From Escherichia coli (lineage in GTDB: Bacteria; Pseudomonadota; Gammaproteobacteria; Enterobacterales; Enterobacteriaceae), in the NCBI RefSeq assembly GCF_016903815.1, contig NZ_CP069973.1: a stretch of DNA of 64,000 nucleotides. The stretch is one strand, 5' to 3'. Below, in pieces: positions 11,329 through 44,595 of the stretch. Below the pieces are notes generated by a model. It was not told where the DNA came from, did not search any database, and was given only the letters and a program-made list of their open reading frames with translations. The translations under genes were made by a program, and so were the position numbers. Position 1 is the first letter of the stretch. Every line of letters begins with the position of its first letter.

Positions 11329-11595
11329 TTACACATCATTAGTACCTTCCTTATTTTTTGACTGGGACAAATTTGGGACCGATGGGTTCAGGACTGAGTC
11401 TATTTGCCGTGCGTGTTCGGTAAGGTGATTAGGCGCGAGGTGAGCATATCGACGAACCATTTCGATAGACTCCCAGCCTCCCATTTCTGAAAATGCAAGA
11501 AGAGAAACACTGGACTGAACCAGCCTGCTTGCCTTTGCTATCAAAGTACCTTGAAGGCCAGATGATTTCTGGCGATATTTACAGCGCTTCCGCAA
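11329..11595 (-). pseudogene. Tyrosine-recombinase (phage integrase) C-terminal remnant
   Basis: ORF ends in …[30 protein letters not shown]…, a typical P4-like integrase C-terminus; the upstream part is degenerate and there is no room for the catalytic core; lies 15 bp from the tRNA 3' end. Confidence 0.7.
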
Positions 11596-11677
11596 TGAGT
11601 TTTTCTCTGTGCCGCCAGAGGCGTTCCCCGCTTTTTCAGCACCGCAATAATGTCGGCGGAATGCCAGTCCTGTTGCA

Positions 11678-12148
11678 TCATGCGGCCACCTCGCTGATAA
11701 ATTTTACGCCGTCGGCGGTACGCAGCCAGCGTGGGGCTTTGAGTCCTTCCGTGAAATACCAGACCAGCTCACACAGCAGCCCGGTCAGGGTTTGCTCCAT
11801 TTTTGGTTCCGCCGGACGTTCCAGCAGAAGCTGGAGTAGTGCGAGGCAGTATTCGCACAAGGAATCAGGTTCGGAAATAAAGTGCTCTGGTGTGGCGGGA
11901 AGGGTATCCACGGTCAGGCTTTCGGTAAGATGCGGTGGGATGGGGTCGTGTAGTGTGGGTTGCAGTAGCGCAAGAGCCGCGTGAAGCCGCCCGCAGAGCG
12001 CCAGTCGTAGCGCTGGATCGTCGGTTTCAATCAGGGTTTCGGCAAAGCGGGCGCAGTAGTCAGCAAGGACAGTGAAATCCGTGGTGGCATTGAAGGGGAC
12101 GGTCAATAGATCGAGTAAATCGCTGTCAGTGGTGAGGATTGTAGCCAT
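11678..12148 (-). CDS. Hypothetical acidic protein (156 aa), unknown function
   Basis: Clean ORF with an AGGAGG-like RBS (ggaggttgcc) just upstream of its ATG; leucine/acidic-rich; no family recognised by eye. Confidence 0.5.
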
Positions 12149-12494
12149 AGGGCAACCTCCGATAAGTGGGTGTTCAAGCCACCACCGGAGAGGCTAATCT
12201 CGCGGGTGGTGGAACCGGGCAGGGTTAGCCTTACCAGCCTTATCGGACACTGGCGCGTCTTGCGACGCCCCCGCCCGGCCCACCATTGAGATGTAACCGT
12301 GCGAACAACACAAAAAAAGACGCTGGCGCGTCATGTGTCGCCGATAAGATTTCTTCAGGAGGCTAATCCCGACGCCTGATTTTGCAGGCGCGGGAGAAAG
12401 ATACTGCGATTGGTCATGAGTGGCAAGGGCTACATCATGTTTACCAACATCTCACGCAAAAATACCCTGATTATTAATAGCGAAAATCAGTTTC

Positions 12495-15400
12495 TTATTT
12501 TGGCGGTAGCTTTTTGCGGTTCTTTGCCAACTGGAATCCTTCAGGTAACGGTTTGAATTTATCGCCGCCTTTAGGCCAGCGTTTTGCCCTGCTCTGAAAT
12601 GCCCTTAACGAGTCGATATCCAGCGTTGCAGCGACCACAAAGTCATTATCACCGCCCTTCACACGAGCAATATCACGCATAAAGGGTTCTTTTGCCGGGG
12701 AACGTACGCGACTATCGCCGTATTTTCGGTTATTCACTAAAATAGTATAGGCATGAATATCCAGCGCTGCTGATTCAATCAACGATGCAAACGTATCTAG
12801 ATCTTTATTCCAGCTCAATACCATTAATGCATCGAGTGCGCCCTGAAAACGGATCCTCGCTTTACTATTCTGGAGTTCAGAGCAAATCATAACGCCAAAA
12901 TTGACGCCGTGATGAATATATACCGGCTTACGTTGTTTAACATTAAGTGTCGAATCCCAAGACTTACCATAAATTGAAAATAATGCCTCATCTTCACCTA
13001 CGGCGGGTTCCAGCTTGGGTTGCCATATTTTGACACTCGCTGGATAGCCGAGTCTGTTATCTGAAAGGACAAGTACGGCCTCACTCTTCAGTTGATTATC
13101 GTCTAAGTGGCGGTATTCTGTTCCCGCAATTAGACTGATACCCGCCGAACTCAAACGATCAGCAATACTGTTAACCCAGCGTAACGGGATTGAAAGCTCA
13201 GGGAATAAAACATAATCAGGTTTAGGAGATAGTTTCAATGTTGCATTAACCAGTTCAGAAATCCGCTGGTACCTTGAACGGGACAAGTTAGATTTATTGC
13301 AGGCCATTTTAGCCCAGTCGTCCTCCTCTGTTTTAATGCTGGTTAGCGCAACGACAACTTTATGTTTCCTGTCTGTGCCAATATGAATGAATTTCTTAGG
13401 CCGAGCTTTTTTTGTCGCTTCATCTGAGTCCTGCTCCGATGCTAGCAACGTCGGTTTGATCCATACTCCGCGTAATGCTTGAGTATATTTTGCCCAAATG
13501 GTGGACGGTCTCTCATCTGGTTTTTTGTCGGATGTGGAGGGTAATCCAACACATTCGGGGGCCAGTTCTGATATTTCAGCGGGTGTTAAAGGACGTGTAG
13601 GGAAAATGTAAGGTAGGTAACTTTCGTTCTTACGATTTCCTTTAGCCACTTTTTCCAGTCGGGTATTCTTGGTTGATTTCAAAAATAGCTTAATAACGTC
13701 AATATCAATAAGCGATGAGTCGCTCATTAATTTCAGTATTTTAACTTCTTTTTTACTATCACGCTGATTAACAAGTTTTTCTGCCGACTGACTCTTTACG
13801 ATCTGTTTATAAGGTTCCTTTGCTAAATCAGCTCGAGCTACCAATGGCGCTTTTAAATAAAAATCTGCTGAATCAAAGCGAAGATCCAGTAAATCCTTTA
13901 GATTCGTCAGACTTTGTGAAATATGATTAAAAAATGTATCCGCAAGGCACTCTTCTTTCTTTGAACGTTTATCAAGAAATAATCTGTCAGGACTGTAATA
14001 TCGTGTCGCTGCATCAACAAATAGCCAGCTTAATGTGCCTTTTATACAGCGCCAAAGATCATTTACTGCTCGAGTTTTGCAACCATTTATATTCACTTCC
14101 TTACCTGAAGTAATCACCGATGCCAACAGGTTGATGGATTCGTAAGCTTTAAGTACAATTTTTTCCGCGTGCTGCCATTCATTCATACTGATAGCAAAGC
14201 CAAGCAGCCTTGGCAGATAACTAAAATGTGCAAATAGATTATCAGCCCTAAGAATATGGTTGTAGGCAAACTGATAAAACTCTTCCCGCTGTTCTTTCCA
14301 TTCACTTGGAGGCAGATCTCGTGCCAGTGTTTCAACGTAGCGTAATTGCAGTGACCAGCCCAAACGACGAATGGTTAATCCATCCGCACGGCGCAGAGTA
14401 TCGGCATTTTCACCTACACTACCGGCAGCGGAAAGGACTTTAGCTGCGGTGGAGTGTTCCAGTTGATCCGGTGAAGGCATCAAGCGGTGTTCACTAGAAA
14501 GCTCGTAGATCTCCTTTTCGATACTGTCGAGCAGGTCTATTCCAGCCCTCCCTTGAAGCACGAAAAGTTTTTGCTTATCGGATTGTAACTGGATGGTGGT
14601 CTTACCCTGGAAATGCTCGCCCTGCTGTATTTGCCATATTTGTTTTTGCTCGTTTTTCAAATAAACGCAATCATTGCCAAGCCTATCTTGCAGCAATAAC
14701 ATAAATTCGTGATTATTAGTAATTGTCCCTGTATCGCGTATTACAAGGAACATATCATCGACATAACGACCGTAGTGAATTGGTGATAGTTTTTCAATGA
14801 CTAATTTATCCCAATGGTGTAGCAATATATTTGAAATGATCCGACTGGCTGTTAATCCAATGACCAGACCACCATTAATAACAGGTGTTTTGTACGCTAT
14901 TTTCTTTCCAAATGCCGCTGCGCCGTCAGACCAGTGCTTTAAGAATACTGCTAACTGTGCAGTAAACGCTTTTTCATCCTCAGTCAGTTTTATGTTTAGT
15001 GTGTTATAGAGATCATCAGAGGTTATAGCCAGTGGATCAATAAAATGATAGTAACTTTTTAAATCCAGTGAGGCGGCGATAATGTCACGATCTTTTTCCA
15101 ACTCGTCACGTATAGCTTTTAAGCCATCACCACGCCATTTTTGGTAGGGCTGGAAGTAGGGGCTAAAAGAACCCACGGCACTGATATGGAATGGATTATC
15201 CTGCTCATTGCTAAATAATTCATCATTACGAATACGCTTTAGCCGCGCGCCATAGCAACAGTTATCTAAGCTGGCATCAAATTTATGCCCGACCATGTTA
15301 ATCCATAGTGCAGAGATAATGTGACTATCAACCGGGAAGTCACCAATAATACGAAACTCTGGTATCAGATCAAAATTATTAAATAAATGGTCGGCTGCTC

Positions 15401-15704
15401 GTTTAGGATTAGAAAAGTGGACGTGTCCATTTTGGGATTCATGTTTTTTCTTTGTGGTTAATTTTTTCGGTAACAAACGAAATTTGCCAATCAACTTCTT
15501 ATTGCTACTGAATCCATCTTCGCTCTGCAAAAGATCTAAGAGTTTTTGCAGGTTTTCAAGTAATTCCTGCTCATACTCGGCAAATTTGATAGCAACAGGA
15601 AATGTATTCTCAAAGAAGCTATCGGCTTTTGCTTTCCGGTAAGCGACCAGAAGGTCTTCAATCGTCAGATCATCCCAGCCAGTGAAAATTGCCTGATATG
15701 TCAT
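12495..15704 (-). CDS. Reverse transcriptase fused to a C-terminal nitrilase (carbon-nitrogen hydrolase) domain; candidate defence-associated RT (UG/DRT-like)
   Basis: 1069-aa ORF. RT motifs: ASLDLKSYYHFID (motif A), GLVIGLTASRIISNIL (motif B-like), YGRYVDDMFLV (YVDD at 14754-14765). C-terminal nitrilase-like triad candidates: FPELSIP (Glu codon 13197-13199), a Lys near VKIWQPK, GVMICSE (Cys codon 12881-12883). Confidence 0.8.
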   Translation of the reverse strand: MTYQAIFTGWDDLTIEDLLVAYRKAKADSFFENTFPVAIKFAEYEQELLENLQKLLDLLQSEDGFSSNKKLIGKFRLLPKKLTTKKKHESQNGHVHFSNPKRAADHLFNNFDLIPEFRIIGDFPVDSHIISALWINMVGHKFDASLDNCCYGARLKRIRNDELFSNEQDNPFHISAVGSFSPYFQPYQKWRGDGLKAIRDELEKDRDIIAASLDLKSYYHFIDPLAITSDDLYNTLNIKLTEDEKAFTAQLAVFLKHWSDGAAAFGKKIAYKTPVINGGLVIGLTASRIISNILLHHWDKLVIEKLSPIHYGRYVDDMFLVIRDTGTITNNHEFMLLLQDRLGNDCVYLKNEQKQIWQIQQGEHFQGKTTIQLQSDKQKLFVLQGRAGIDLLDSIEKEIYELSSEHRLMPSPDQLEHSTAAKVLSAAGSVGENADTLRRADGLTIRRLGWSLQLRYVETLARDLPPSEWKEQREEFYQFAYNHILRADNLFAHFSYLPRLLGFAISMNEWQHAEKIVLKAYESINLLASVITSGKEVNINGCKTRAVNDLWRCIKGTLSWLFVDAATRYYSPDRLFLDKRSKKEECLADTFFNHISQSLTNLKDLLDLRFDSADFYLKAPLVARADLAKEPYKQIVKSQSAEKLVNQRDSKKEVKILKLMSDSSLIDIDVIKLFLKSTKNTRLEKVAKGNRKNESYLPYIFPTRPLTPAEISELAPECVGLPSTSDKKPDERPSTIWAKYTQALRGVWIKPTLLASEQDSDEATKKARPKKFIHIGTDRKHKVVVALTSIKTEEDDWAKMACNKSNLSRSRYQRISELVNATLKLSPKPDYVLFPELSIPLRWVNSIADRLSSAGISLIAGTEYRHLDDNQLKSEAVLVLSDNRLGYPASVKIWQPKLEPAVGEDEALFSIYGKSWDSTLNVKQRKPVYIHHGVNFGVMICSELQNSKARIRFQGALDALMVLSWNKDLDTFASLIESAALDIHAYTILVNNRKYGDSRVRSPAKEPFMRDIARVKGGDNDFVVAATLDIDSLRAFQSRAKRWPKGGDKFKPLPEGFQLAKNRKKLPPK

Positions 15705-15998
15705 GCGTTATCGTCCTTAGATTACAGTCTGTACAGAATTAGCCAGCCGTTTCATGCCCGAAGGGGGGCTCTTGACACCAGTAATCCATCAGTGAGGCTG
15801 GCAATAATTTTGATTTGTATCCATGTTACACGCTCCCCGCAACCAGTCCGAGCATATATTTGTCACATTTTTCCCGAAAGTGATTAAGTTTGAATTTTTT
15901 GTTTAATGTCGATTTTTAGTCGACAAAATGAGGAATAAGTAAACTATTTCTTGCTGTGGCGTATCCCTGAATCTACACTGGTTTAAATATTTGTACTA

Positions 15999-16802
15999 AT
16001 GTCTATTCAGAGGCGACAGTTGCCAAACTATCTAAACTGGCTGATGCAGCACACGCTACCCGGCCAGGTGCTGCTCCAGTCATGGCTTACCCGCAACGGC
16101 ATAGATCGTAAGCTCTCTTATCTCTATGTGAAGAATGGCTGGCTCAGGCGGATCGCTCACGGCGTATACTGCCGGACGGGTCGTGAACCGGATTGGGTGG
16201 ATGCGGTTTACTGCCTGCAATCGCAGTGGGAAAAGCCTGTTCGGGTGGCGGGGCTAACCAGCCTTGCGCTTCAGGGTCATGCGCACTATACCGAACAGGG
16301 TAAGCCGCAGGTCTGGCTCGCGCTTCCGGCTTACGTCAAACTGCCGGGATGGTTTTCTGCCTTTGAACAATCCGCAACATTTGTCACGCTGTATACGTCA
16401 GGCCTTACCGCTGATGTAACGCCATTTACTACGGAACTGAAAATTGGTGACCGGCAGTTAGCGGGCAGTGTCCCGGAACTGGTCGCGTATGAGATCGCTT
16501 GTGGCGTTCCTTCGTTGATCTCGTTCGAACATGCCGATGCTCTGTTTCAGGGGATGAATCTTCTCAGCCCGCGTAAATTGCAGGCGTTACTCTGCGCCAG
16601 TCATTCGGTTAAAACCAACCGGGTGATGCTTTACCTTGCCCGGCGTAATGGACACCCTTATTTTCAGTTTATTGATCAAAGCGGTATAGAAACAGGTACG
16701 GGAAAGCGGCAAATCATACCCGGCGGCTGGCTGGAGCCGGATTATCAAATTACTGTTCCACGCGCATTTAAACCGGAAGGAGTCGAAGATGGATCTGCGT
16801 GA
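15999..16802 (+). CDS. AbiEi-like antitoxin/transcriptional regulator (type IV TA / abortive infection)
   Basis: 267-aa ORF; N-terminal segment (…LYVKNGWLRRIAHGVYCR…) matches the AbiEi wHTH signature; overlaps the next gene by 14 bp. Confidence 0.65.
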   Translation: MSIQRRQLPNYLNWLMQHTLPGQVLLQSWLTRNGIDRKLSYLYVKNGWLRRIAHGVYCRTGREPDWVDAVYCLQSQWEKPVRVAGLTSLALQGHAHYTEQGKPQVWLALPAYVKLPGWFSAFEQSATFVTLYTSGLTADVTPFTTELKIGDRQLAGSVPELVAYEIACGVPSLISFEHADALFQGMNLLSPRKLQALLCASHSVKTNRVMLYLARRNGHPYFQFIDQSGIETGTGKRQIIPGGWLEPDYQITVPRAFKPEGVEDGSA

Positions 16803-17709
16803 TAGCTATGCCCGGCAGGTCAAACTGTTGATGGCCGCTCTGCCGTATGTGGCGAAGGAGTCCTGTTTCGCGTTGAAAGGCGGCACCGCAATCAATTTGT
16901 TTGTGCAGGATTTTCCCCGTCTGTCGGTGGATATTGATCTGGCGTATAAGAGCTTTGCGGATCGCGATACTGATCTGGCGGCTATCAACGACGCTTTGAA
17001 GAGGATTACTGCATCGCTGAACGGCAGACCGGGGATCACCGCGATTCGGCAGGAAAATAAAGCGGATGAAAAGCGCATCATTGTGAATACCGCTGATGCA
17101 AAGATTAAGATCGAGGTTAGCCCGGTCTGGCGCGGGCTGTTGTTGCCTCCGGCAGAAATGCCTGTGTGCGAACGTGTGGAAATGGAGTATGGCTTCACCA
17201 CCATGAGTGTCGTCTCGCTGGCGGATCTTTATGGCGGTAAAATCTGCGCAGCGCTTGATCGTCAGCACCCGCGCGATCTGTTTGATGTGCTGAATATGCT
17301 GGAGAAACCGGGACTGATGCGGGAGATCTTTGACGGTTTTCTTTGTTATCTGGCAGGCCATCCCCGCCCCATTGCCGAGTTGCTGGCCCCAAACTGGGAT
17401 ACAGAGCGGATCACGACGCTGTATGCTCAGGAATTTTCGGGGATGACTCAGCAGGAAACGTCGCTGGAATCGCTGCTGTCAGTAACGACTTTGCTGCCGC
17501 AGGCGTTGAAGTCACATCTTACGGATCTGGATCGCGAGTTCTTGCTCAGTTTTAAGCAAAACAGCCCTGACTGGTCGCGGTATCGCTATCCTGAAATTCA
17601 GCATCTTCCGGCTATTCGCTGGAAGCAACGTAATCTGGCGGTGCTGAAAGATAAAAATCCGGCGAAGTATGTGGCGGCGGTGAATAAGCTAGAGAGGGTG
17701 CTGGCGTAA
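16789..17709 (+). CDS. AbiEii-like nucleotidyltransferase toxin (DUF1814-type)
   Basis: 306-aa ORF with nucleotidyltransferase motif FALKGGTAINLF…RLSVDIDLAY; translationally coupled to the upstream AbiEi-like gene. Confidence 0.7.
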   Translation: MDLRDSYARQVKLLMAALPYVAKESCFALKGGTAINLFVQDFPRLSVDIDLAYKSFADRDTDLAAINDALKRITASLNGRPGITAIRQENKADEKRIIVNTADAKIKIEVSPVWRGLLLPPAEMPVCERVEMEYGFTTMSVVSLADLYGGKICAALDRQHPRDLFDVLNMLEKPGLMREIFDGFLCYLAGHPRPIAELLAPNWDTERITTLYAQEFSGMTQQETSLESLLSVTTLLPQALKSHLTDLDREFLLSFKQNSPDWSRYRYPEIQHLPAIRWKQRNLAVLKDKNPAKYVAAVNKLERVLA

Positions 17710-17821
17710 TCAATAGACCAGCATTAATCACAGATGATTACCAATCAGCCAGAAATGGTTAAATCGTCGAATTCATAATTAATACTTTTTCTTACGCCGC
17801 TGAACAGCTTGAAAAGGATGT

Positions 17822-17933
17822 ATATTTTAAATAGCAGTGAAGTGAACAGTTTATTGCCGTTATTAATAGAGATGGAGGAATAAATACGCGTATTCTACTA
17901 TTGCAACAAAAACAACGATAATGATCAGTTTTC
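17822..17933. repeat. Dispersed ~110-bp repeat, copy A
   Basis: About 88% identical by eye to 37104-37214; shared core …tgaagtgaacagtttattgccgttattaataga…cgtattcta…aaaacaacgata…tcagttt. Confidence 0.75.
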
Positions 17934-18142
17934 ATAATGAAGTAACCTGATAGATATAAAAATGTTGATTGAGGCTAAATGCCCGGATGAAGGTTGTCGA
18001 GGGAGCCAGGTGGTTTTTTCTTTTGGGTGATCTCCATTGCTGGATAGTCCCCTCTTTCTCGCTCAAAGCAGACCCTGGAATTGAACGCAGAGGGACTACC
18101 TGACACAATTTTGCACAGTGAAGAGTCGGTCGTTATTAACGT

Positions 18143-19027
18143 TCAGATTTTCAATGTATCAATGACCATCCGCAGGGCGGGGGAGACGTTGCGATGAGGG
18201 TAATAGAGAAACAATCCCTCCATTCGCAGGCTGTAACGCTGCAACACCCTGATAAGCTTACCGTGTTCTAAATCATCCGCGACCAGTTCAACAGGAACAT
18301 AGGCCAATCCGAGGCCCAGCCGGGCTGCTTCTGCTTCCATATAGCTGTCGGATAAGGCCCATTGCCCTTCAGGGCGATGAGTGATTTTTTTATCATCCTG
18401 ATTGAGTTCCCACTGGTATACGCTGCCGTCGGCAAACTGATAGGCGATACAGGGATGCGCCTTTAAATCCGCCGGGGTTTGCGGAAAACCATAGCGACGA
18501 AAATGTTCCGGAGTCCCCACAATTGCCATCTCCATATCGGGCGTGATGCGTACCGCGACCATACCCTGGCCGACTTCAGGCCCCAGGCGGACACCTGCAT
18601 CGAATCTTTCCTCGATGATATCGACGAACCGGCTCTCATTTATCAGTTCAAGCCGGATATCAGGATATCTCTGTTTAAATACCGCCAGCTTTGGCAGCAG
18701 GCATTTATCAATCGCGTGCTGGCTGGCATTGATACGCACCGTGCCGGAGGGCGTCTCTCGATAGTGCGCCAGCGTGGCAAGCCCAAGATCTAACATTTCA
18801 AATCCAGATGCCGTCTTCTGGTAGAGCTGCTCGCCTGCTTGTGTCAGCGACAGTTTACGCGTGGTGCGCACTAGCAGCTGGACGCCCAGCCTTTCTTCAA
18901 GCTCGCGAACAGAACGGCTGACTCCTGACTGAGCAAGACCCAGCCGCTGAGCCGCTGCGGTAAAGCTGCCTTCCCGCACCACCTGCATAAACAGGTACAG
19001 CTCGTTGTAGTTCTCCCTTTTCGCCAT
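18143..19027 (-). CDS. LysR-family transcriptional regulator
   Basis: 294-aa ORF with LysR N-terminal HTH (FTAAAQRLGLAQSGVSRSV) and substrate-binding domain; divergent from the hydrolase gene. Confidence 0.85.
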   Translation of the reverse strand: MAKRENYNELYLFMQVVREGSFTAAAQRLGLAQSGVSRSVRELEERLGVQLLVRTTRKLSLTQAGEQLYQKTASGFEMLDLGLATLAHYRETPSGTVRINASQHAIDKCLLPKLAVFKQRYPDIRLELINESRFVDIIEERFDAGVRLGPEVGQGMVAVRITPDMEMAIVGTPEHFRRYGFPQTPADLKAHPCIAYQFADGSVYQWELNQDDKKITHRPEGQWALSDSYMEAEAARLGLGLAYVPVELVADDLEHGKLIRVLQRYSLRMEGLFLYYPHRNVSPALRMVIDTLKI

Positions 19028-19213
19028 TGAAACATCCCCCCTTCATGCCGGCAATCTCCGCATTAATTTATAACAATATGGTATTAATCTTAGCATTAAT
19101 CGCCCCCTAATCAGCACTAATTCTGCTCACTATAATGACCCCATCAAAGTAAAGCACCGCAGCGTTGTCCGTCGGAAACCTGTATCTCTCTGTTGTTTTT
19201 TATGGGGACTTTT

Positions 19214-20350
19214 ATGAAAGCCTTCACCCGCACGCTAAAAACCGCGATGCCGACCATGCTGCTTTTCGCATCATTAAGTGGAGTCACGACAATGAGTTAT
19301 GCTGATTCAACCAATCCTAATGCCCCTGTGTCCATGACAGATAAATGGGATAAAACGTTCGCCGAGAGCCAGAAAGTCGATCACCGTAAAGTCTCGTTCC
19401 CGAACCGATATGGCATCACCTTAGTGGGCGATCTTTACCTGCCTAAAGACCGTGGCGATCGCAAGCTGGCGGCGATTGCGGTCAGTGGGCCATTTGGCGC
19501 GGTGAAAGAGCAATCCAGCGGCTTGTATGCGCAGACGCTGGCGGAACGAGGGTTTGTTACCCTGGCGTTCGATCCTTCTTACACCGGGGAAAGCGGCGGC
19601 TATCCGCGAAACGTCGCCTCACCGGATATCAACACTGAAGATTTCAGCGCGGCGGTGGATTTCTTAGGGCTGCAAAAAGAGGTAGATCGCAACCGTATCG
19701 GGCTGCTCGGTATTTGTGGCTGGGGCGGCATGGCGCTGAACGACGTGGCGATGGATACCCGCGTTAAAGCGGTAGCTACCAGCGTGATGTATGACATGAG
19801 CCGGGCGATGGGTCATGGTGTGGGGGATGGCAAAGACCGTTATTCTACCGCCGACCGTCGTGCCGTTCTGCAATATCTGAATGAACAGCGCTGGAAGGAT
19901 GCGCAGAGCGGAACGTTCGCTCACGGTGGTCATGATATTAATGTCGATAGCAACGGCAAGGTCAGTGCGGGCGAGCGCATTCTGCCAGAAACGCTGCCGG
20001 CAAATCCTCATCCGGTACTGAAAGAGTTCTTTGACTACTATCGCATGCCGCGCGGCTTCCACGAACGTTCCGTTAACTCTACCGGGGCGTGGACGGCAAC
20101 GATGCCGCTGTCATTTATGAATATGCCGCTGTTGAGCTACGCCAGTGAAATCACCATTCCGACGCTGATTGTGACCGGTGAGAAAGCACATTCACGCTAT
20201 TTTGCTGAAGATGCTTACAAGGCGGTTGGCAGTAAAGACAAAGAGTTGGTGGTGGTACCAGGGGCAAATCACGTGGACCTGTACGATAACGTGGCCGGAA
20301 AAATACCTTTCGCGAAGTTCGAACAATTTTTCCAGACCAAACTGAAATAA
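19214..20350 (+). CDS. Secreted alpha/beta hydrolase (dienelactone-hydrolase-like, Cys nucleophile elbow)
   Basis: Start set at MKAFTRTLK… (signal-peptide-like N-terminus); GICGWGG elbow; paralogous to the ORF at 39036-39956. Confidence 0.75.
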   Translation: MKAFTRTLKTAMPTMLLFASLSGVTTMSYADSTNPNAPVSMTDKWDKTFAESQKVDHRKVSFPNRYGITLVGDLYLPKDRGDRKLAAIAVSGPFGAVKEQSSGLYAQTLAERGFVTLAFDPSYTGESGGYPRNVASPDINTEDFSAAVDFLGLQKEVDRNRIGLLGICGWGGMALNDVAMDTRVKAVATSVMYDMSRAMGHGVGDGKDRYSTADRRAVLQYLNEQRWKDAQSGTFAHGGHDINVDSNGKVSAGERILPETLPANPHPVLKEFFDYYRMPRGFHERSVNSTGAWTATMPLSFMNMPLLSYASEITIPTLIVTGEKAHSRYFAEDAYKAVGSKDKELVVVPGANHVDLYDNVAGKIPFAKFEQFFQTKLK

Positions 20351-20425
20351 AACCTCTCCTGAATTGATGCAAAGCCATCGGCCATAGGCTGGTGGCTTTT
20401 ATCCTGATCTTTGTGAAATTTCACT

Positions 20426-21619
20426 ATGTCGACACTAAGCCAAACACTATCACCTCATCATCAGCGCGCATACTGGGGCGGTATTTTTGCCATGACCCTG
20501 TGCGTGTTTGTGCTGATTGCTTCTGAATTTATGCCCGTCAGCCTGCTCACGCCGATTACCCGCGATTTAGGCGTGACGGAGGGGCTGGCAGGGCAGGGGA
20601 TTGCTATCTCCGGCGCGCTGGCGGTTCTGACCAGCCTGACGCTTTCAACGCTAGCTGGAAAGATGAATCGTAAGTTCCTGCTGCTGGGGATGACGGTTCT
20701 GATGGCCGTATCGGGGCTTATTATTGCGCTGGCTTCCAGTTATCTGATGTATATGGTCGGTCGTGCGATGATTGGTGTGGCCATTGGCGGATTCTGGTCG
20801 ATGTCAGCGGCAACGGCTATTCGTCTGGTACCGCAGCATCAGGTTACGCGTGCGCTGGCGATTTTCAACGCCGGTAATGCGCTGGCGACGGCCGTGGCCG
20901 CACCGCTGGGAAGCTATCTGGGGGCTACGGTCGGATGGCGAGGCGCTTTCTTGTGCCTGGTGCCTATCGCGGTTGTCGCCTTTATCTGGCAATGCATTAG
21001 TCTGCCAAGCATGGATGCGAATAAAAGCCACACGTCATGTGGCGCGGTATTCCGCTTATTTAGCCGCCGCATGGTTGTGGTCGGCATGATAGCCTGCGGC
21101 CTGTTTTTCATGGGGCAGTTTGCACTATTCACCTATGTGCGCCCGTTTCTGGAGTCGGTGACACGGGTTAATTCCTTAGGCTTGTCGTCGATTTTGCTGA
21201 TTATCGGCGTGGCCGGTTTTATTGGCACGCTGGTTGTTTCGGCATTTCTCAACAGAAAATTCTACCCCACGCTGATGGCCATACCCGGACTGATGGCCGT
21301 CATTGCCATCGGTCTGATGCTTACCGGGCATCACGTCTGGACGGTCTCGCTGCTGTTAGGACTCTGGGGCATGCTGGCCACCGCCGCGCCAACCGGATGG
21401 TGGACATGGATTGCGCGTACGTTGCCTGACAACGCCGAAGCTGGAGGCGGGCTCATGGTCGCGGTGATTCAGCTCGCCATCGCCCTTGGATCAACGGCAG
21501 GAGGCATTGTGTTTGACCGCCTTGGCTGGCAGAGCACGTTTGCTATGAGTAGCGTGCTGCTCCTTTGCGCTGGCGTACTGACCTTTGTTACCGCACGCCA
21601 GAAGGCCGGTGCGCTTTAG
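20426..21619 (+). CDS. MFS transporter
   Basis: 397-aa highly hydrophobic ORF with a multi-TM pattern. Confidence 0.8.
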   Translation: MSTLSQTLSPHHQRAYWGGIFAMTLCVFVLIASEFMPVSLLTPITRDLGVTEGLAGQGIAISGALAVLTSLTLSTLAGKMNRKFLLLGMTVLMAVSGLIIALASSYLMYMVGRAMIGVAIGGFWSMSAATAIRLVPQHQVTRALAIFNAGNALATAVAAPLGSYLGATVGWRGAFLCLVPIAVVAFIWQCISLPSMDANKSHTSCGAVFRLFSRRMVVVGMIACGLFFMGQFALFTYVRPFLESVTRVNSLGLSSILLIIGVAGFIGTLVVSAFLNRKFYPTLMAIPGLMAVIAIGLMLTGHHVWTVSLLLGLWGMLATAAPTGWWTWIARTLPDNAEAGGGLMVAVIQLAIALGSTAGGIVFDRLGWQSTFAMSSVLLLCAGVLTFVTARQKAGAL

Positions 21620-21797
21620 TCCGGCGAGGCGCGCGTTGCTGAATAAGTTACACAAGGCGATAAGCGCCCTCTATGGGTTGGGCGCTCTTTTAAACGATTT
21701 AGGTGATTTTCTTAAACGGCTACTGCAGATTTTTCTCTTAATTTATGGGTATTTCCCCCGGAGGTGAGGAAGCGCTCCCCACGCCCCGCCGCGAGGA

Positions 21798-37103: not shown

Positions 37104-37214
37104 ATATTTTTTAATATCACTGAAGTGAACAGTTTATTGCCGTTATTAATAGAAATGGAGAAATAAATAGGCGTATTCTACAATTGCGACAAAAACAACG
37201 ATATTAATCAGTTT
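37104..37214. repeat. Dispersed ~110-bp repeat, copy B
   Basis: About 88% identical by eye to 17822-17933. Confidence 0.75.
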
Positions 37215-37719: not shown

Positions 37720-38862
37720 TTAATCCATTAACGGAAACCAGCCAGTTCCTTTCGATGCCTGAATTTGATCCCATAGTTTATCCGGAATGGTTAATTCAGG
37801 AACAAGTTGTGGATTAAGGGTTGTTTGAATTTCATGGCTTCTACCTGATTCAGCTAAAGTCACCCATTCTGGATTTATCACCAGCCCTTTACCGATCGCA
37901 ACAAGTGGCAGGCCAGCGGAAATTGCTTCTTGAGCCTGAGACGGTGTGCGTATTTTACCTGCAGCGATTACCGGCACTCTGCCTGCAATATGATTTAAAA
38001 TCAATTCAATAGTTCGGGGGCCATTTGGCGACTCAACAGGGTAGCTATCGTTAATACTGACCAGCGAGGTATGTATATACGAAATACCGGATGAAATGAG
38101 TCGATCAAGGAGTTTATAAGTATCCTCTATCCGCAGCCCCCCTGTTACAGATTCTTCAGGAGATATTCTGTAACCGATAGCAAAGCGCTTTGTCGCATAT
38201 TCATAGACTACATTTTTTACTTCCTGTAATACGGCCAGCGGGAAGCGCATACGTCCTTCAAGATCTCCTCCCCATCGGTCATTACGCTGGTTAAATAGAG
38301 GGGAGAAGAAATTCTGCAGAAGGAATCCGTGCGCACCATGAAGTTCAACGCCATCAAAACCTGCTTTAATCGCCCTTTTTGTGACATCTCCGAATGCTCT
38401 AATGGTTTCCTGAATTTCGTTTTCAGTCATTTCCCTGCTTTGTACCACTCTCTTCATAAAGTCACCAGATTTTACGCTTGATGCGCTGGCACTAATAACA
38501 TCGTTATTTGGCACAAGCTCCGGGATGGCTTTATTACCAGCGTGGAAAATCTGCAAAATAGCCGGAGCACCGCCACTTTTGGCTGCAGCTGCTAACTTTT
38601 CAAGGCTGTTAATGAAACGGTCGTCATACGCGGCAAATTCATGAGTAAACCCAATGCCGCTTGGCGTGACATAGGTGCATCCTGTTATTACTAAACCAAC
38701 ATTTTGTGAGCGACGTTTATAAAATTCGAGTTCTTGCTCAGAGATGGTTCCATCAGGATTAGCTGACCAGGTTGTCATAGGAGCCATAACGATACGATTA
38801 CGTAGCTTTATTTTTTCTGTCAGCATAAAAGGAGAAAACAATGATGGGTGTTTATTTGTCAT
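37720..38862 (-). CDS. Old-Yellow-Enzyme family NADH:flavin oxidoreductase
   Basis: 380-aa ORF; N-terminus …LFSPFMLTEKIKLRNRIVMAPMTT… is a typical OYE TIM-barrel start. Confidence 0.8.
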   Translation of the reverse strand: MTNKHPSLFSPFMLTEKIKLRNRIVMAPMTTWSANPDGTISEQELEFYKRRSQNVGLVITGCTYVTPSGIGFTHEFAAYDDRFINSLEKLAAAAKSGGAPAILQIFHAGNKAIPELVPNNDVISASASSVKSGDFMKRVVQSREMTENEIQETIRAFGDVTKRAIKAGFDGVELHGAHGFLLQNFFSPLFNQRNDRWGGDLEGRMRFPLAVLQEVKNVVYEYATKRFAIGYRISPEESVTGGLRIEDTYKLLDRLISSGISYIHTSLVSINDSYPVESPNGPRTIELILNHIAGRVPVIAAGKIRTPSQAQEAISAGLPLVAIGKGLVINPEWVTLAESGRSHEIQTTLNPQLVPELTIPDKLWDQIQASKGTGWFPLMD

Positions 38863-39035
38863 AACAATACCTCAAATGTTTATCTGATTTTAATGCGTAT
38901 AATCTTAATAAGTTGAGTTGCTACTTTTTGATGCTTTTTTTCCTTTAATAGAATTCTTTTTGAGTAATTTTATTATTGTTGTGTAGTCAATAAAGGATAA
39001 ATGTCAGGGAGATAAGGAATCTCCCTGTAAGATTA

Positions 39036-39956
39036 TTACAAATGTGTTTTATAAAAAGGAATTAATTTTTCGAGTGCCTGTTTCACAGGTTCTGGCTTAT
39101 CATACAGGTCGTAATGTGAATAACCTTCAACCACGACCAGCTCTTTATGTTTTGAGGCAGCGCGGCCAATAATTTCGCAGCCGTCACGGTAGGCACCAAA
39201 TGCGCCCACTCTATCGCCCACCACAACCATTATTGGTTGAGTTAACAGGACTTCTGCAAGATGAAATGCATCCCAACCCACGGCAACAGTCTGATGTGAG
39301 AATAGCGAACGATTTACCCCATTAGGTGCACAGCCTCGTGGCGAACGATAATATTCTGTGGCTTCAAAAAGGTCTATTTCTGTTAATCCCGCTTCAAGAG
39401 CTGCATCCGGAGAAGAGGGGAGTAAATCATCTACGCGAAGTTTTGCGCCGTTAGCTTCGTCTGTTCTTTGTTGCGCCATCGCTTCGAGTGCTCCGATAGG
39501 ATTAAACGCTGTAAATCCCTCACGCATAAGACGCCCGTAGTTTGCACCCGTGACAGTACCAATAGCTTTAATTCGACGTTCTGTCATTGCGGCATTAATG
39601 GCATATCCACCTCCACCACAAATACCCAGTACACCAATACGCCCGGCATCAACGTAAGGTAAGGTGGTAAGGTAATCAACGACAATGCTGAAGTCTTTTA
39701 CTCGCATTGTTGGATCTTCCAGATAACGCGGTTCTCCACCGCTGCTTCCCTGAAAACTGGCATCAAAAGCAATGACGATAAAGCCAGCTTTTGCCAGGGC
39801 GGCACCATACACACTACCCGATGTCTGTTCTTTGCAGCTTCCAATTGGATGGGCGCTGATAATGGCAGGATACTTTTTTTCACTATTAAAATCGTCAGGG
39901 AAATAGATATCAGCAGCTATATCCCAGTAAGTATGTTTTATCGAAACAGTTTTCAT
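39036..39956 (-). CDS. Alpha/beta hydrolase (dienelactone-hydrolase-like, Cys nucleophile elbow)
   Basis: 306-aa ORF; GICGGGG elbow; paralogue of the ORF at 19214-20350. Confidence 0.75.
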   Translation of the reverse strand: MKTVSIKHTYWDIAADIYFPDDFNSEKKYPAIISAHPIGSCKEQTSGSVYGAALAKAGFIVIAFDASFQGSSGGEPRYLEDPTMRVKDFSIVVDYLTTLPYVDAGRIGVLGICGGGGYAINAAMTERRIKAIGTVTGANYGRLMREGFTAFNPIGALEAMAQQRTDEANGAKLRVDDLLPSSPDAALEAGLTEIDLFEATEYYRSPRGCAPNGVNRSLFSHQTVAVGWDAFHLAEVLLTQPIMVVVGDRVGAFGAYRDGCEIIGRAASKHKELVVVEGYSHYDLYDKPEPVKQALEKLIPFYKTHL

Positions 39957-40112
39957 TTCAAGCTCCGGGGATTTGCCTAAACAGATTTAAATATCATTTC
40001 TATTATCCGCAACTGGCATTCGTGTTCATATCGAGAACGGCGTAATAGTATGACTTGTATTGGTTATCATCAATGGTCTAATATCTATCACAGTGTTAAG
40101 TTAAGGTTTACA

Positions 40113-41039
40113 ATGATGAAAATAGAGCCTTCAATTTTGCCTTCTCTTGCCTGGTTTGCGCTTATTGTTCGTGCCGGCAGTTTTTCCAGAGCCGCTTCTG
40201 AAATGGGTATTACGCGGGCCGCATTGTCCCAGAATTTAAAATCTCTTGAGGAACGTCTTAACACCAAGCTGATATACCGTACGACCCGCAATATGTCGCT
40301 TACTGAGGAAGGACAGCGTCTGTATGAAGTGCTGGTGTCGGCTTTGGGGCAAATTGATGATGCTTTGAAAGATGTTGGTGATACCCAACTTGAACCTACA
40401 GGCCTGTTGAGAATAAATTCCTCCCGTGTTGCAGCACGGATGCTTGTTGAGCCTCATATTGGCGAGTTTCTTACTCGTTACCCCAAAACAAAGATAGAAC
40501 TCATTATGGATGACGGTTTATCTAACATTATTGCGGACGGCTGTGATGTGGGCATACGTCTTGAGCAAGGACTGGATGAGCATATGACTGCCGTTCCTGT
40601 TTCTCCGCTTATTAAACTGGTTACTGTGGCATCGCCAGATTATTTAAAAGAACACGGTATTCCTGAAACGCCTCAGGAACTGAGTAACCATAATTGCCTT
40701 CGGTTGCGGCATAAAAGTAGCGGTGCACTCTCTGCATGGGAGTTTTCTAATGTTGTGGGGGGTAATGAAGAGTTCGAAATAGAGGTTTCAGGTAAGTATA
40801 TTTCTAATGATGACGAAAGCATGATACGAATGGCGCTGAATGGAACGGGTATCATTCAACATCTGGATTTTGCAATCGCTGAACATATCAATGCGGGCAA
40901 GTTACAGCCGATTCTTGAGGATTGGGCCGTTTCATTTCCTGGATTTTATATATATGTTTCATCACGGGTGAGAATGCCCTCTAAAGTTCGTGCTTTTATT
41001 GATTTTATGGTGGAGAAAAGAGTAAAAATAGAAAGTTAA
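40113..41039 (+). CDS. LysR-family transcriptional regulator
   Basis: Start set at MMKIEPS…; LysR HTH (FSRAASEMGITRAALSQ); divergent from the hydrolase gene. Confidence 0.8.
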   Translation: MMKIEPSILPSLAWFALIVRAGSFSRAASEMGITRAALSQNLKSLEERLNTKLIYRTTRNMSLTEEGQRLYEVLVSALGQIDDALKDVGDTQLEPTGLLRINSSRVAARMLVEPHIGEFLTRYPKTKIELIMDDGLSNIIADGCDVGIRLEQGLDEHMTAVPVSPLIKLVTVASPDYLKEHGIPETPQELSNHNCLRLRHKSSGALSAWEFSNVVGGNEEFEIEVSGKYISNDDESMIRMALNGTGIIQHLDFAIAEHINAGKLQPILEDWAVSFPGFYIYVSSRVRMPSKVRAFIDFMVEKRVKIES

Positions 41040-41121
41040 TGATGTGTGTCAGAATATCGGTAAGAAGAATGGCGCAATCGTGAGGATACGTTTATTCATA
41101 ATAAATCTCCTGAAAGTTTAG

Positions 41122-44045
<2,924 letters not shown>

Positions 44046-44595
44046 TTATCGTTCATGAGAAGCATAACGTAAAGGGAAAAGCTCGATTAGACGGCAGGAT
44101 TTGTCAGGGGGTATGAACAAAATTCATAAATCTGTTTGAGGGTTGAGATTAGTCGTGCAAGTTCGATATCCCCGGAATTTACAGTCCGATGAATATAAAT
44201 GAATGTCCATAAAAAATATATTGGTTTATCCTGGCGTATATACTCACTTCGACGTACTCCCAATAGCAGTTAATTAAAGACGGGTCATTATTATTCACTC
44301 TTAATAATGAATTATTCACTGCCCGCAGAGTAAGAAATATAACTTAAGTATCTATTTAATAACTTGCACAAAAAGCTAAATTTTTACCCATAAATAAAAA
44401 TATAATCCCGCGCCCAACCACCTGATGAGTGGCTACAGACACTGGATATATTAGGTGGCGGTGTACTTTCTTACATAAAGGTATTTCCTTTTCTGCGGAA
44501 AAGGAAACCGGGAAATCCCCGGTTTTTCTGACAAGCAGACGCCATTATTTGTGTCTGCCTATGTTCGTTAATTCGTTCATCAGGAAATTATCTCA

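Follow-up and report, generated by a model that had tools for sequence, protein, structure and literature searches.

The closest described counterpart of the genes considered herein is the pgrR–ycjY pair of Escherichia coli K-12, in which a LysR-type regulator gene (pgrR, also ycjZ) and a gene for an alpha/beta-hydrolase with a Cys elbow (ycjY) are divergent neighbours. Genomic SELEX placed a PgrR site in the spacer between the two and assigned ycjY-ymjDC-mpaA to the PgrR regulon (PMC5934670), and PgrR also represses its own promoter (PMC10505187). Amongst alpha/beta-hydrolases more widely, Cys-His-Asp triads are known from dienelactone hydrolases (PMC11878206; bioRxiv 10.1101/2025.10.30.685675). 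The window analysed, a 64,000-nt stretch of E. coli contig NZ_CP069973.1 (assembly GCF_016903815.1), harbours two further Cys hydrolases, H1 and H2, and three LysR genes, and had been presented in a preliminary description as containing two paralogous LysR–hydrolase modules. We consider it fairly probable that the window instead holds three separately inherited, LysR-controlled accessory cassettes, two of which are each built on a Cys alpha/beta-hydrolase of the YcjY/PA2218 family, with the mechanism and detoxification role proposed below. These are cassette 1 (LysR1, H1 and a major facilitator superfamily (MFS) transporter), cassette 2a (an old-yellow-enzyme family flavin oxidoreductase (OYE) with H2 and LysRA) and cassette 2b (LysRB with the aldo-keto reductases (AKRs) AKR1 and AKR2). 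The two hydrolase cassettes, 1 and 2a, are related by ancient paralogy: they stem from different orthologue groups and entered E. coli independently of each other, with no duplication inside this genome, whilst the former 'module 2' is a composite of 2a and 2b. The open reading frames of both modules were confirmed with unchanged limits, as were the accessory genes previously noted (MFS_1, Oxidored_FMN, a second LysR and two Aldo_ket_red; Table 1). Homology, residue conservation, synteny, cassette limits and genome distribution were computed, and from these we infer H1 export, regulator–target assignments, chemistry and substrate.

Table 1. Positions of the three cassettes and their elements in the window
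Feature	Position	Strand	Evidence or remark
Cassette 1 (LysR1/H1/MFS), discrete transferable unit	18058..21635		91.6 % nt identity to Kluyvera genomosp. 1 over exactly this span
LysR1, LysR-type regulator	18143..19027	-	Divergent from H1; HTH_1 + LysR_substrate
Candidate LysR recognition box ATAACAATATGGTAT, T-N11-A type	19070..19084	+	Best-conserved intergenic block, 12 orthologous loci
CTAATCAGCAC element (19107-19117), then TATAAT -10 hexamer (19131-19136)	19107..19136	+	Putative H1 promoter, poor -35
H1, PA2218-type Cys alpha/beta-hydrolase	19214..20350	+	PDB 2HDW match 422 bits, E 2e-125
H1 signal peptide, residues 1-30 (predicted)	19214-19303	+	
H1 residues Cys168; Glu323; His353	19715-19717; 20180-20182; 20270-20272	+	
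MFS transporter, NepI/SotB-related	20426..21619 (PGAP start 20492)	+	MFS_1 1.5e-37
Cassette 2a (OYE-H2/LysRA)	37812..41095 (approximate)		OYE gene itself starts at 37720
OYE, old-yellow-enzyme family flavin oxidoreductase	37720..38862	-	Oxidored_FMN 5.7e-78
H2, YcjY-type Cys alpha/beta-hydrolase, cytoplasmic (predicted)	39036..39956	-	PDB 5XB6 match 230 bits, E 4e-67
H2 residues Cys113; Asp248; His281	39618-39620; 39213-39215; 39114-39116	-	
LysRA, predicted divergent regulator of H2 by synteny	40113..41039	+	
Cassette 2b (LysRB, AKR1, AKR2), 3.0 kb	41096..44094		84-85 % nt identity to Klebsiella michiganensis and Erwinia piriflorinigrans over exactly this span
LysRB, PgrR-like LysR	41239..42132	+	
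AKR1 and AKR2	42163-43152 and 43179-44030	-	Convergent with LysRB; Aldo_ket_red 3e-79 and 1e-50

Pairwise alignment demonstrates that both gene pairs of the preliminary description are true homologues, above the twilight zone. H1 and H2 align over 323 aa at 32 % identity (118 bits, E 4e-35), the GICGWGG elbow of the former being matched to GICGGGG in the latter, and in profile alignments the elbow Cys sits on the nucleophilic Ser of the GLSMGG/GMSFGG elbow of the solved serine hydrolases 8B4U, 9PJB and 7D78. Within a family alignment of 123 sequences (81 H1-type, 41 H2-type and YcjY) this Cys (C168 in H1) is invariant in every member, as is a His in an H-x-D-L-Y-D motif (H353 in H1, H281 in H2), and the KEQ motif (positions 98-100) shows a single exception, Asp for Glu at position 99. 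Overall, P-x-G-x-x-KEQ, D120, S122, R132, Cys168, R183, Y276 and His353-x-D-L-Y-D are either invariant or at least 97 % conserved. The acid position following strand beta7 (Glu323 in H1, Asp248 in H2, at the expected place following the ...IV.G strand) is occupied by Glu or Asp in 80 of the 81 H1-type proteins and by Asp in 40 of the 41 H2-type proteins, but by Ser in YcjY. The predicted triad would comprise Cys in place of Ser, the invariant His and, as candidate acid, the Glu/Asp after strand beta7. Judged from these alignments, the Cys elbow is inherited family-wide, being present in the solved structures 2HDW and 5XB6 as well, and is not a peculiarity of the two genes in the window. Of the outcome named earlier as counting against the proposal, different subfamilies with a convergent elbow, the different subfamilies are borne out, but not the convergence, as the elbow is homologous and family-wide.

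The division into subfamilies is apparent at several levels. Two positions beyond the nucleophile, every one of the 81 H1-type proteins carries an aromatic residue and every one of the 42 H2-type/YcjY sequences carries Gly, such that the H2 elbow (GICGG) fits the Sm-X-Nu-X-Sm pattern and that of H1, with Trp at this position, departs from it. H1 matches 2HDW over residues 30-382 and H2 matches 5XB6 over residues 12-304 (bit scores in Table 1), whilst a profile built from H1, H2 and YcjY scores 548 and 370 bits against the two structures, respectively. The two hydrolases are not each other's closest counterparts: H2 is nearer to K-12 YcjY (41 % identity, 227 bits) than to H1, which is itself 34 % identical to YcjY, and a signal peptide is predicted for H1 but not for H2. 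The H1 type is represented, at 51-64 % identity, in Proteobacteria, Bacteroidota, Firmicutes, Elusimicrobia and Melainabacteria, and H2 orthologues occur at 75-82 % in Burkholderia, Cupriavidus, Pseudomonas, Stenotrophomonas, Shewanella and even Mycobacterium. H1 and H2 are, on this evidence, members of different and widely distributed orthologue groups. Additional relatives were observed in Shewanella mangrovisoli (locus L089, 10173-10924), where a second H2-like gene with 62 % identity to H2 lies 5 kb from the H2 orthologue, beside flavodoxin and AraC genes, and in Klebsiella (locus L099, 1356-2399), where a family member 38 % identical to H1 accompanies MFS and cyclophilin-like genes. The family includes subtypes beyond the H1, H2 and YcjY types considered here. 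A model specific to the YcjY/PA2218 family was found in neither Pfam nor NCBIfam, and Pfam returns only partial PETase, Peptidase_S15 and DLH matches.

With regard to the regulators, all three display the full architecture of LysR-type transcriptional regulators at about 300 aa (HTH_1 E 1e-23 to 3e-19, LysR_substrate E 7e-39 to 3e-29). LysR1 and LysRB align over 292 aa with 42 % identity (238 bits, E 2e-82), and both carry the long conserved stretches that had been reported for them, namely RFDAG(V/I)RLG, MVAVRI.PDM.MA(I/V)VG and LYYP. As YafC, YhjC, AaeR and DmlR, which belong to the same broad subgroup, share 25-34 % identity (91-165 bits) with these LysRs, the likeness of LysR1 to LysRB is well above family background. 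Both are also close to PgrR, which is 47 % identical to LysRB (303 bits) and 41 % to LysR1 (216 bits), compared with 102-155 bits for these two against YafC, YhjC, AaeR and DmlR; LysRA is more distant, at 31 %. This third pair, pgrR–ycjY, is already documented and was missed in the preliminary description. Unlike the cassettes of the window, pgrR–ycjY is core, occurring in 5218 of 5426 genomes. When 36 LysRs were placed in a neighbour-joining tree (200 bootstraps), the regulators located beside H2-type genes, LysRA amongst them, formed a clade in 200/200 replicates, and PgrR together with the regulators beside H1-type genes did so in 153/200, with the LysRA clade as sister to the latter rather than within it. 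Both clades together are split in 181/200 replicates (90 %) from YafC, DmlR, YhjC, AaeR and four unrelated LysRs of the same loci.

This clade bears directly on the objection that adjacency of LysR and hydrolase genes is meaningless, LysR being the commonest regulator family in Proteobacteria, and that the window simply holds two unrelated operons with common domains. In keeping with such a view, most non-proteobacterial loci have no LysR near the hydrolase gene, with AraC-type regulators in some, and three H1-type loci feature unrelated LysRs (around 90 bits). We nevertheless regard it as distinctly unlikely: the hydrolase-linked LysRs form a single clade that excludes other LysRs of the very same loci, the divergent layout of H2/LysRA is retained in organisms as far apart as E. 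coli, Burkholderia and Shewanella, that of H1/LysR1 extends from E. coli to Psychrobacter, and PgrR is tied to ycjY by experiment (PMC5934670). LysR1 orthologues and H1-type genes form divergent pairs in enterics, Aeromonas, Psychrobacter and Pasteurellaceae, and in alpha- and beta-proteobacteria and Xanthomonadales the regulator neighbouring H1-type genes is LysRB-like (330-370 bits), the NepI-like MFS gene frequently being present as well; some 21 proteobacterial loci have an H1-type gene with a LysR1-like or LysRB-like regulator no more than about 2.5 kb away. The pattern suggests an old partnership between this LysR clade and the Cys hydrolases. Strict co-divergence of regulator and enzyme was considered and rejected, as by similarity YcjY groups with H2 whilst PgrR groups with the H1-linked regulators; with three enzyme groups and an unrooted topology, neither co-divergence nor partner swapping is established.

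The pairing of H2 with LysRB proposed in the preliminary description did not hold, the LysR divergently adjoining H2 being LysRA. In Paraburkholderia, Stenotrophomonas, Pantoea, Shewanella and Cupriavidus the divergent partner of the H2 orthologue is a LysRA orthologue (51-54 % identity, 343-373 bits), which scores only about 220 bits against LysRB, and the LysRA-type divergent pairing is found in 5/6 proteobacterial H2 loci. As the best 80 loci from a scan of genome contigs were all H1-type, H2-type contexts were sampled protein by protein, and these proportions refer to a small sample (seven loci). An NmrA-like gene follows H2 in the sampled proteobacterial loci, and H2–LysRA intergenic regions share conserved TGTMAA...ACTGT elements. 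LysRA is consequently the predicted regulator of H2. The left limit of cassette 2a is the junction of the K-12 deletion described below, and the right limit is the start of cassette 2b homology.

Cassette 2b is a distinct unit that happens to adjoin 2a. LysRB orthologues with 85-90 % identity are found across Enterobacterales, and in Klebsiella and Erwinia they belong to a fixed unit, NmrA(-)/LysRB(+)/AKR1(-)/AKR2(-), which recurs in Serratia without AKR1; amino acid identity of the AKRs in these three genera is 91-96 %. Nucleotide homology to Klebsiella and Erwinia begins at the lost NmrA start codon, and E. coli has no NmrA-like gene divergent from LysRB. The three cassettes also have distinct G+C contents (54 % for 1, 43 % for 2a and 50 % for 2b). 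O157-like strains retain OYE-H2-LysRA but have neither LysRB nor AKR1. In the O157-like variant of module 2 in E. coli strain 136 (locus L093, 5001-6413), LysRB, AKR1 and part of AKR2 are replaced by approximately 680 bp of unrelated DNA with a 357-bp hypothetical open reading frame; a truncated AKR2 remains, and OYE-H2-LysRA is intact without LysRB. Cassette 1, in turn, is 91.6 % identical in nucleotide sequence to Kluyvera genomosp. 1 (L003) and 86 % identical to Serratia marcescens (L100). In the latter (L100, 192-6917), orthologues of LysR1 (95 %), H1 (96 %) and MFS (81 %) are directly beside NmrA-LysRB (90 %)-AKR2 (94 %), followed by Abhydrolase_6, flavodoxin, CMD and cupin genes. Units that are contiguous there are 20 kb apart in E. 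coli, indicating that such units tend to gather at the same sites.

These observations also determine how the two hydrolase loci are related. If LysRB with H2 and LysR1 with H1 were one regulator–enzyme module duplicated as a unit in the E. coli or enterobacterial lineage, the LysR1–LysRB identity of 42 % above a 25-34 % background, the homology of H1 and H2, and the presence beside both loci of a 107-nt ykgR-derived repeat (91 %) could all be accommodated. However, the syntenic partner of H2 is LysRA, and LysRB resides in a separate cassette with its own limits and G+C content; H2 is nearer to YcjY, and LysRB to PgrR, than either is to its cassette 1 counterpart; H1 and H2 orthologues at 50-82 % identity in distant phyla place their split before the enterobacteria; and the repeat, at 91 % DNA identity, cannot stem from the same event as proteins sharing 32-42 %. 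A duplicated unit is thus very improbable, and largely refuted already. Of the two histories offered previously, ancient duplication or independent acquisition of related cassettes, it is independent acquisition that stands, and local duplication that does not. The repeat itself is a direct one, located in the 17699-17931 region and at 37108-37214, 19.3 kb apart, and bracketing the pao-ecp-ykgMO segment. To the left of cassette 1 a degenerate ykgL/ykgO end (17699-17815, 73.5 % to K-12) is fused to the 3′ part of ykgR (17815-17931, about 91 % to the intact ykgR region close to module 2). This ykgR remnant occurs in 909 genomes, almost exactly the carriers of cassette 1 (912), and is inherited with it; as a trace of module duplication it was rejected, since the ages implied by its DNA identity and by the protein identities disagree.

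Presence and absence were assessed across 5426 complete E. coli genomes. Cassette 1 was found in 912, cassette 2a (H2 and LysRA) in 2104, cassette 2b (LysRB) in 1894 and the full module 2 in 1785, such that the cassettes are present in 17-39 % of genomes; there has been no recent duplication. K-12 lacks window positions 37812-44044 at one clean junction, corresponding to a 6.2-kb deletion of the entire module 2, and what is left of the OYE gene there is the pseudogene ykgP, which corresponds to its final 90 nt (L092 23717-23806, equivalent to window 37720-37809). The single junction and the ykgP stump together indicate that K-12 lost module 2 by deletion. In place of cassette 1, K-12 has other DNA, including yagP, a C-terminal LysR fragment (L092 7382-7792) that adjoins paoD, beside intF. 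The possibility that yagP is a stump of LysR1 was dismissed, as its identity to LysR1 is just 28 % and the surrounding DNA is K-12-specific; it derives from another LysR. Downstream of paoD there seems to be a hotspot for replacement. Likewise, ymjC/ymjD, downstream of ycjY in K-12, were considered as OYE remnants, which would have given ycjY an OYE companion like that of H2, and rejected, giving no tblastn match at E<=1.

Within cassette 1, H1 is probably exported to the periplasm by a Sec-type signal peptide, whilst H2 is probably cytoplasmic. The H1 N-terminus, MKAF...SYA followed by DS (MKAFTRTLKTAMPTMLLFASLSGVTTMSYA followed by DS), lies after a GGGGA Shine–Dalgarno sequence. A hydrophobicity heuristic detects signal-like N-termini in 68 of 80 H1 orthologues, about a dozen of which carry Tat-like RRxLLK motifs (6/6 tested give weak TAT_signal matches below the Pfam cutoff), and both H2 and YcjY lack an N-terminal extension. 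RefSeq (PGAP) places the H1 start at 19292, within the predicted signal peptide, which it would cut, and the ATG at 19214 with its GGGGA suits the orthologues better (window 19193-19303). For the MFS gene, too, the start could be either 20426 or, following PGAP, 20492. Its product is NepI-related but not a NepI orthologue, scoring 288 bits against the NepI model (NF007578; cutoff 584), and the gene co-occurs with H1-type genes in 16-19 of 80 loci.

The LysR1–H1 intergenic region contains a candidate LysR box, the interrupted palindrome ATAACAATATGGTAT, situated in the most strongly conserved part of an alignment of 12 orthologous loci and centred about 56 bp upstream of TATAAT. The latter, together with CTAATCAGCAC, constitutes a putative H1 promoter; both elements are retained in enteric and Aeromonas intergenic regions, and differ in the two most distant loci (L010 and L016). 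Such a layout of box plus -10 element is typical of LysR-activated promoters. A consensus promoter scan did not report the H1 TATAAT element, as would be expected if the -35 is weak, and consensus promoter and terminator scans of both regions revealed nothing above shuffled expectation. One weak hairpin is located between H1 and the MFS gene (20380-20397).

Taken with the gene content, these features suggest a mechanism. Each LysR would bind the shared intergenic region, sense a small molecule (substrate or product) and switch on the divergent operon, by analogy with other LysR systems, including the documented case of PgrR at ycjY. The hydrolase would then attack an ester, lactone or thioester-type carbonyl via a thioester acyl-enzyme intermediate, with reduction and efflux as companion steps in which the reductases and the pump would deal with the remaining reactive parts. 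For cassette 1, H1 would act in the periplasm and the MFS transporter would probably move substrate or product over the inner membrane; for cassette 2a, LysRA would control the cytoplasmic H2 divergent from it, followed by the OYE reductase. Recurrent neighbours of the family include a NepI-like pump, AKRs, NmrA-like and short-chain dehydrogenases, an FMN reductase/flavodoxin, cupin, CMD, a hexapeptide acetyltransferase and a cyclophilin-like protein, and it is these that point to hydrolysis of an ester/lactone xenobiotic or electrophile. Inducible detoxification or scavenging of such a compound is therefore the likely role. Electrophile or aldehyde detoxification had been proposed previously, and the redox and detoxification flavour of the neighbours (OYE, AKR, NmrA, flavodoxin, cupin, CMD) agrees with this, the role itself being deduced from them. 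The reductases match at the level of the family: the OYE is below the equivalog cutoffs (NamA 175/431 bits, NemA 122/403 bits) despite a 263-bit Oxidored_FMN domain, and the AKRs, with Aldo_ket_red scores of 266 and 173 bits, reach 261 bits for the DkgA model (cutoff 425). By these scores, OYE, AKR1 and AKR2 are family members without assigned specificity.

Three other activities are less well supported than ester or lactone hydrolysis. That the hydrolases are peptidases acting on cell-wall peptides would fit the S15 and S9 matches (H2 reaches 39.9 bits against Peptidase_S15, above the cutoff of 23), the co-regulation of ycjY with mpaA and ycjG in the PgrR peptidoglycan-recycling regulon, and a probable location of H1 in the periplasm, where murein peptides arise. 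We find this improbable, as the S15 (PF02129) match comprises the generic alpha/beta core (profile positions 5-128 of 262), H1 has no S15 match, the nucleophile is Cys and not Ser, and neither in the two cassettes nor in around 95 related loci are murein-recycling genes amongst the recurrent neighbours, redox enzymes dominating instead. Quorum-quenching lactonases of acyl-homoserine lactones (AHLs), like UilS of Serratia marcescens, are brought to mind by the best NCBIfam match of both proteins (UilS, NF047920; 64.4 bits, E 1e-17 for H1 and 75.0 bits, E 8e-21 for H2), and an exported H1 would meet external signal molecules. UilS had itself been annotated as a dienelactone hydrolase, and its description gives no catalytic residues (PMC11633161). 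The scores are, however, far under the UilS cutoff of 400 bits and confined to the N-terminal half of the model, so H1 and H2 are not members; furthermore, AHLs are not produced by E. coli and the hydrolase genes are accompanied by those for reductases and a pump, leaving a lactonase of this type quite unlikely. Least probable of the three is an acyltransferase in which Cys carries the acyl group, as in the fungal polyketide transferases GrgF and Fma-AT, the former of which fuses two polyketide chains (PMC8902786). Whilst Cys nucleophiles favour thioester chemistry and GrgF (PDB 6LZH) is matched by H1 (E 6e-7), H2 (1.4e-3) and the family profile (2e-9), the match is weak and covers the core alone, bacterial neighbourhoods contain no acyl-carrier, polyketide synthase or CoA-ligase genes, and an exported H1 would have no obvious acyl donor; such a role is thus very unlikely.

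Several points weigh against the three-cassette account with its detoxification role. YcjY has Ser at the acid position of the triad; the LysR tree was constructed by neighbour-joining alone, with four E. coli outgroups of 47 LysRs; and, with an AraC-type regulator or none in most non-proteobacterial loci, the LysR link is not universal. H1 export is based on a hydrophobicity heuristic and sub-threshold TAT_signal matches, and a thiol nucleophile is unusual in the oxidising periplasm. In addition, sequence does not fix the direction of MFS transport, a 173-bp gap between H2 and the downstream OYE gene makes their co-transcription putative, and a literature search returned no published function or substrate for PA2218, YcjY or any other family member, structures alone being available.

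A broader proposition is offered tentatively, and is unlikely to hold in full: that the PgrR/LysR1/LysRB/LysRA clade and the YcjY/PA2218 hydrolases form an ancient mobile sensor–enzyme partnership, often with a NepI-like pump and NAD(P)H/flavin reductases, constituting an undescribed system for reactive ester/lactone compounds. Were this so, the 'peptidoglycan recycling' label of PgrR–YcjY would be incidental, and H1-type proteins, exported and in some cases Tat-dependent, with 50-60 % identity kept between Proteobacteria, Bacteroidota and Firmicutes, would represent periplasmic thiol hydrolases acting on a novel class of substrate.

Beyond the cassettes, the window contains an island at the tRNA-Thr gene thrW (11329-17709), where prophage CP4-6 is located in K-12. 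This harbours an integrase fragment, a 1069-aa reverse transcriptase–nitrilase fusion (PADLOC RT_UG5-nitrilase, 1034 bits, DRT class) and an AbiEi/AbiEii pair (257 and 386 bits).

As a feature of the genome the arrangement is largely ordinary, accessory LysR-controlled operons being common. Such operons, a structurally known family of Cys hydrolases and the pgrR–ycjY pair were already known, and the present cassettes are further members. What is gained is that two gene sets with the generic annotation 'alpha/beta hydrolase / LysR', carried by E. coli pathogens and commensals, now fall within a defined, uncharacterised family with two crystal structures, and are linked to its only studied example, PgrR–YcjY. 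Assignments of regulators to genes are clarified, and two oddities of K-12 are explained (ykgP as an OYE stump, and the 6.2-kb deletion). For a family that is widespread and well conserved yet without a known substrate, the regulator–pump–reductase structure offers a practical way to both substrate and inducer.

Comparison with the known systems places the cassettes as follows. PA2218 of Pseudomonas aeruginosa (PDB 2HDW, 'hypothetical protein') is an orthologue-level match to H1, with GICGWGG and the HVDLYD histidine motif common to both. Dienelactone hydrolases (PF01738; ClcD/PkDLH, P91 and E. coli 4ZV9) share the alpha/beta-hydrolase fold and have a Cys-His-acid triad and a covalent thioester mechanism like those predicted for H1 and H2; the latter two, however, are 70-140 residues longer, with an insertion between strands 6 and 7 and the invariant KEQ, and appear to represent their own family. 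H2 matches the DLH Pfam model at 25.0 bits, above the gathering cutoff of 21, over profile positions 12-123 of 217 alone, and H1 gives no DLH match at E<=0.001. The pgrR–ycjY pair has the GIC elbow, the LysR clade and the divergent layout in common with the H1 and H2 cassettes, but is core where these are accessory, and the gene co-transcribed with ycjY is mpaA, not one for a pump or OYE. Finally, the classical LysR units, whether divergent (AaeR-aaeXAB and DmlR-dmlA) or convergent (YafC-dkgB), also have HTH_1 and LysR_substrate domains, and the divergent promoters are likewise held in common. The convergent yafC (LysR) and dkgB (AKR) of K-12 (L094 1668-3382), which overlap by 4 nt, are arranged tail-to-tail like LysRB and AKR1. 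The position of the T-N11-A-type box is also alike, here about 56 bp upstream of the -10 element (some 65 bp from the predicted transcription start), whereas LysR1, LysRB and PgrR form a distinct clade, with 41-47 % identity amongst themselves versus 25-34 % to AaeR, DmlR, YafC and YhjC.

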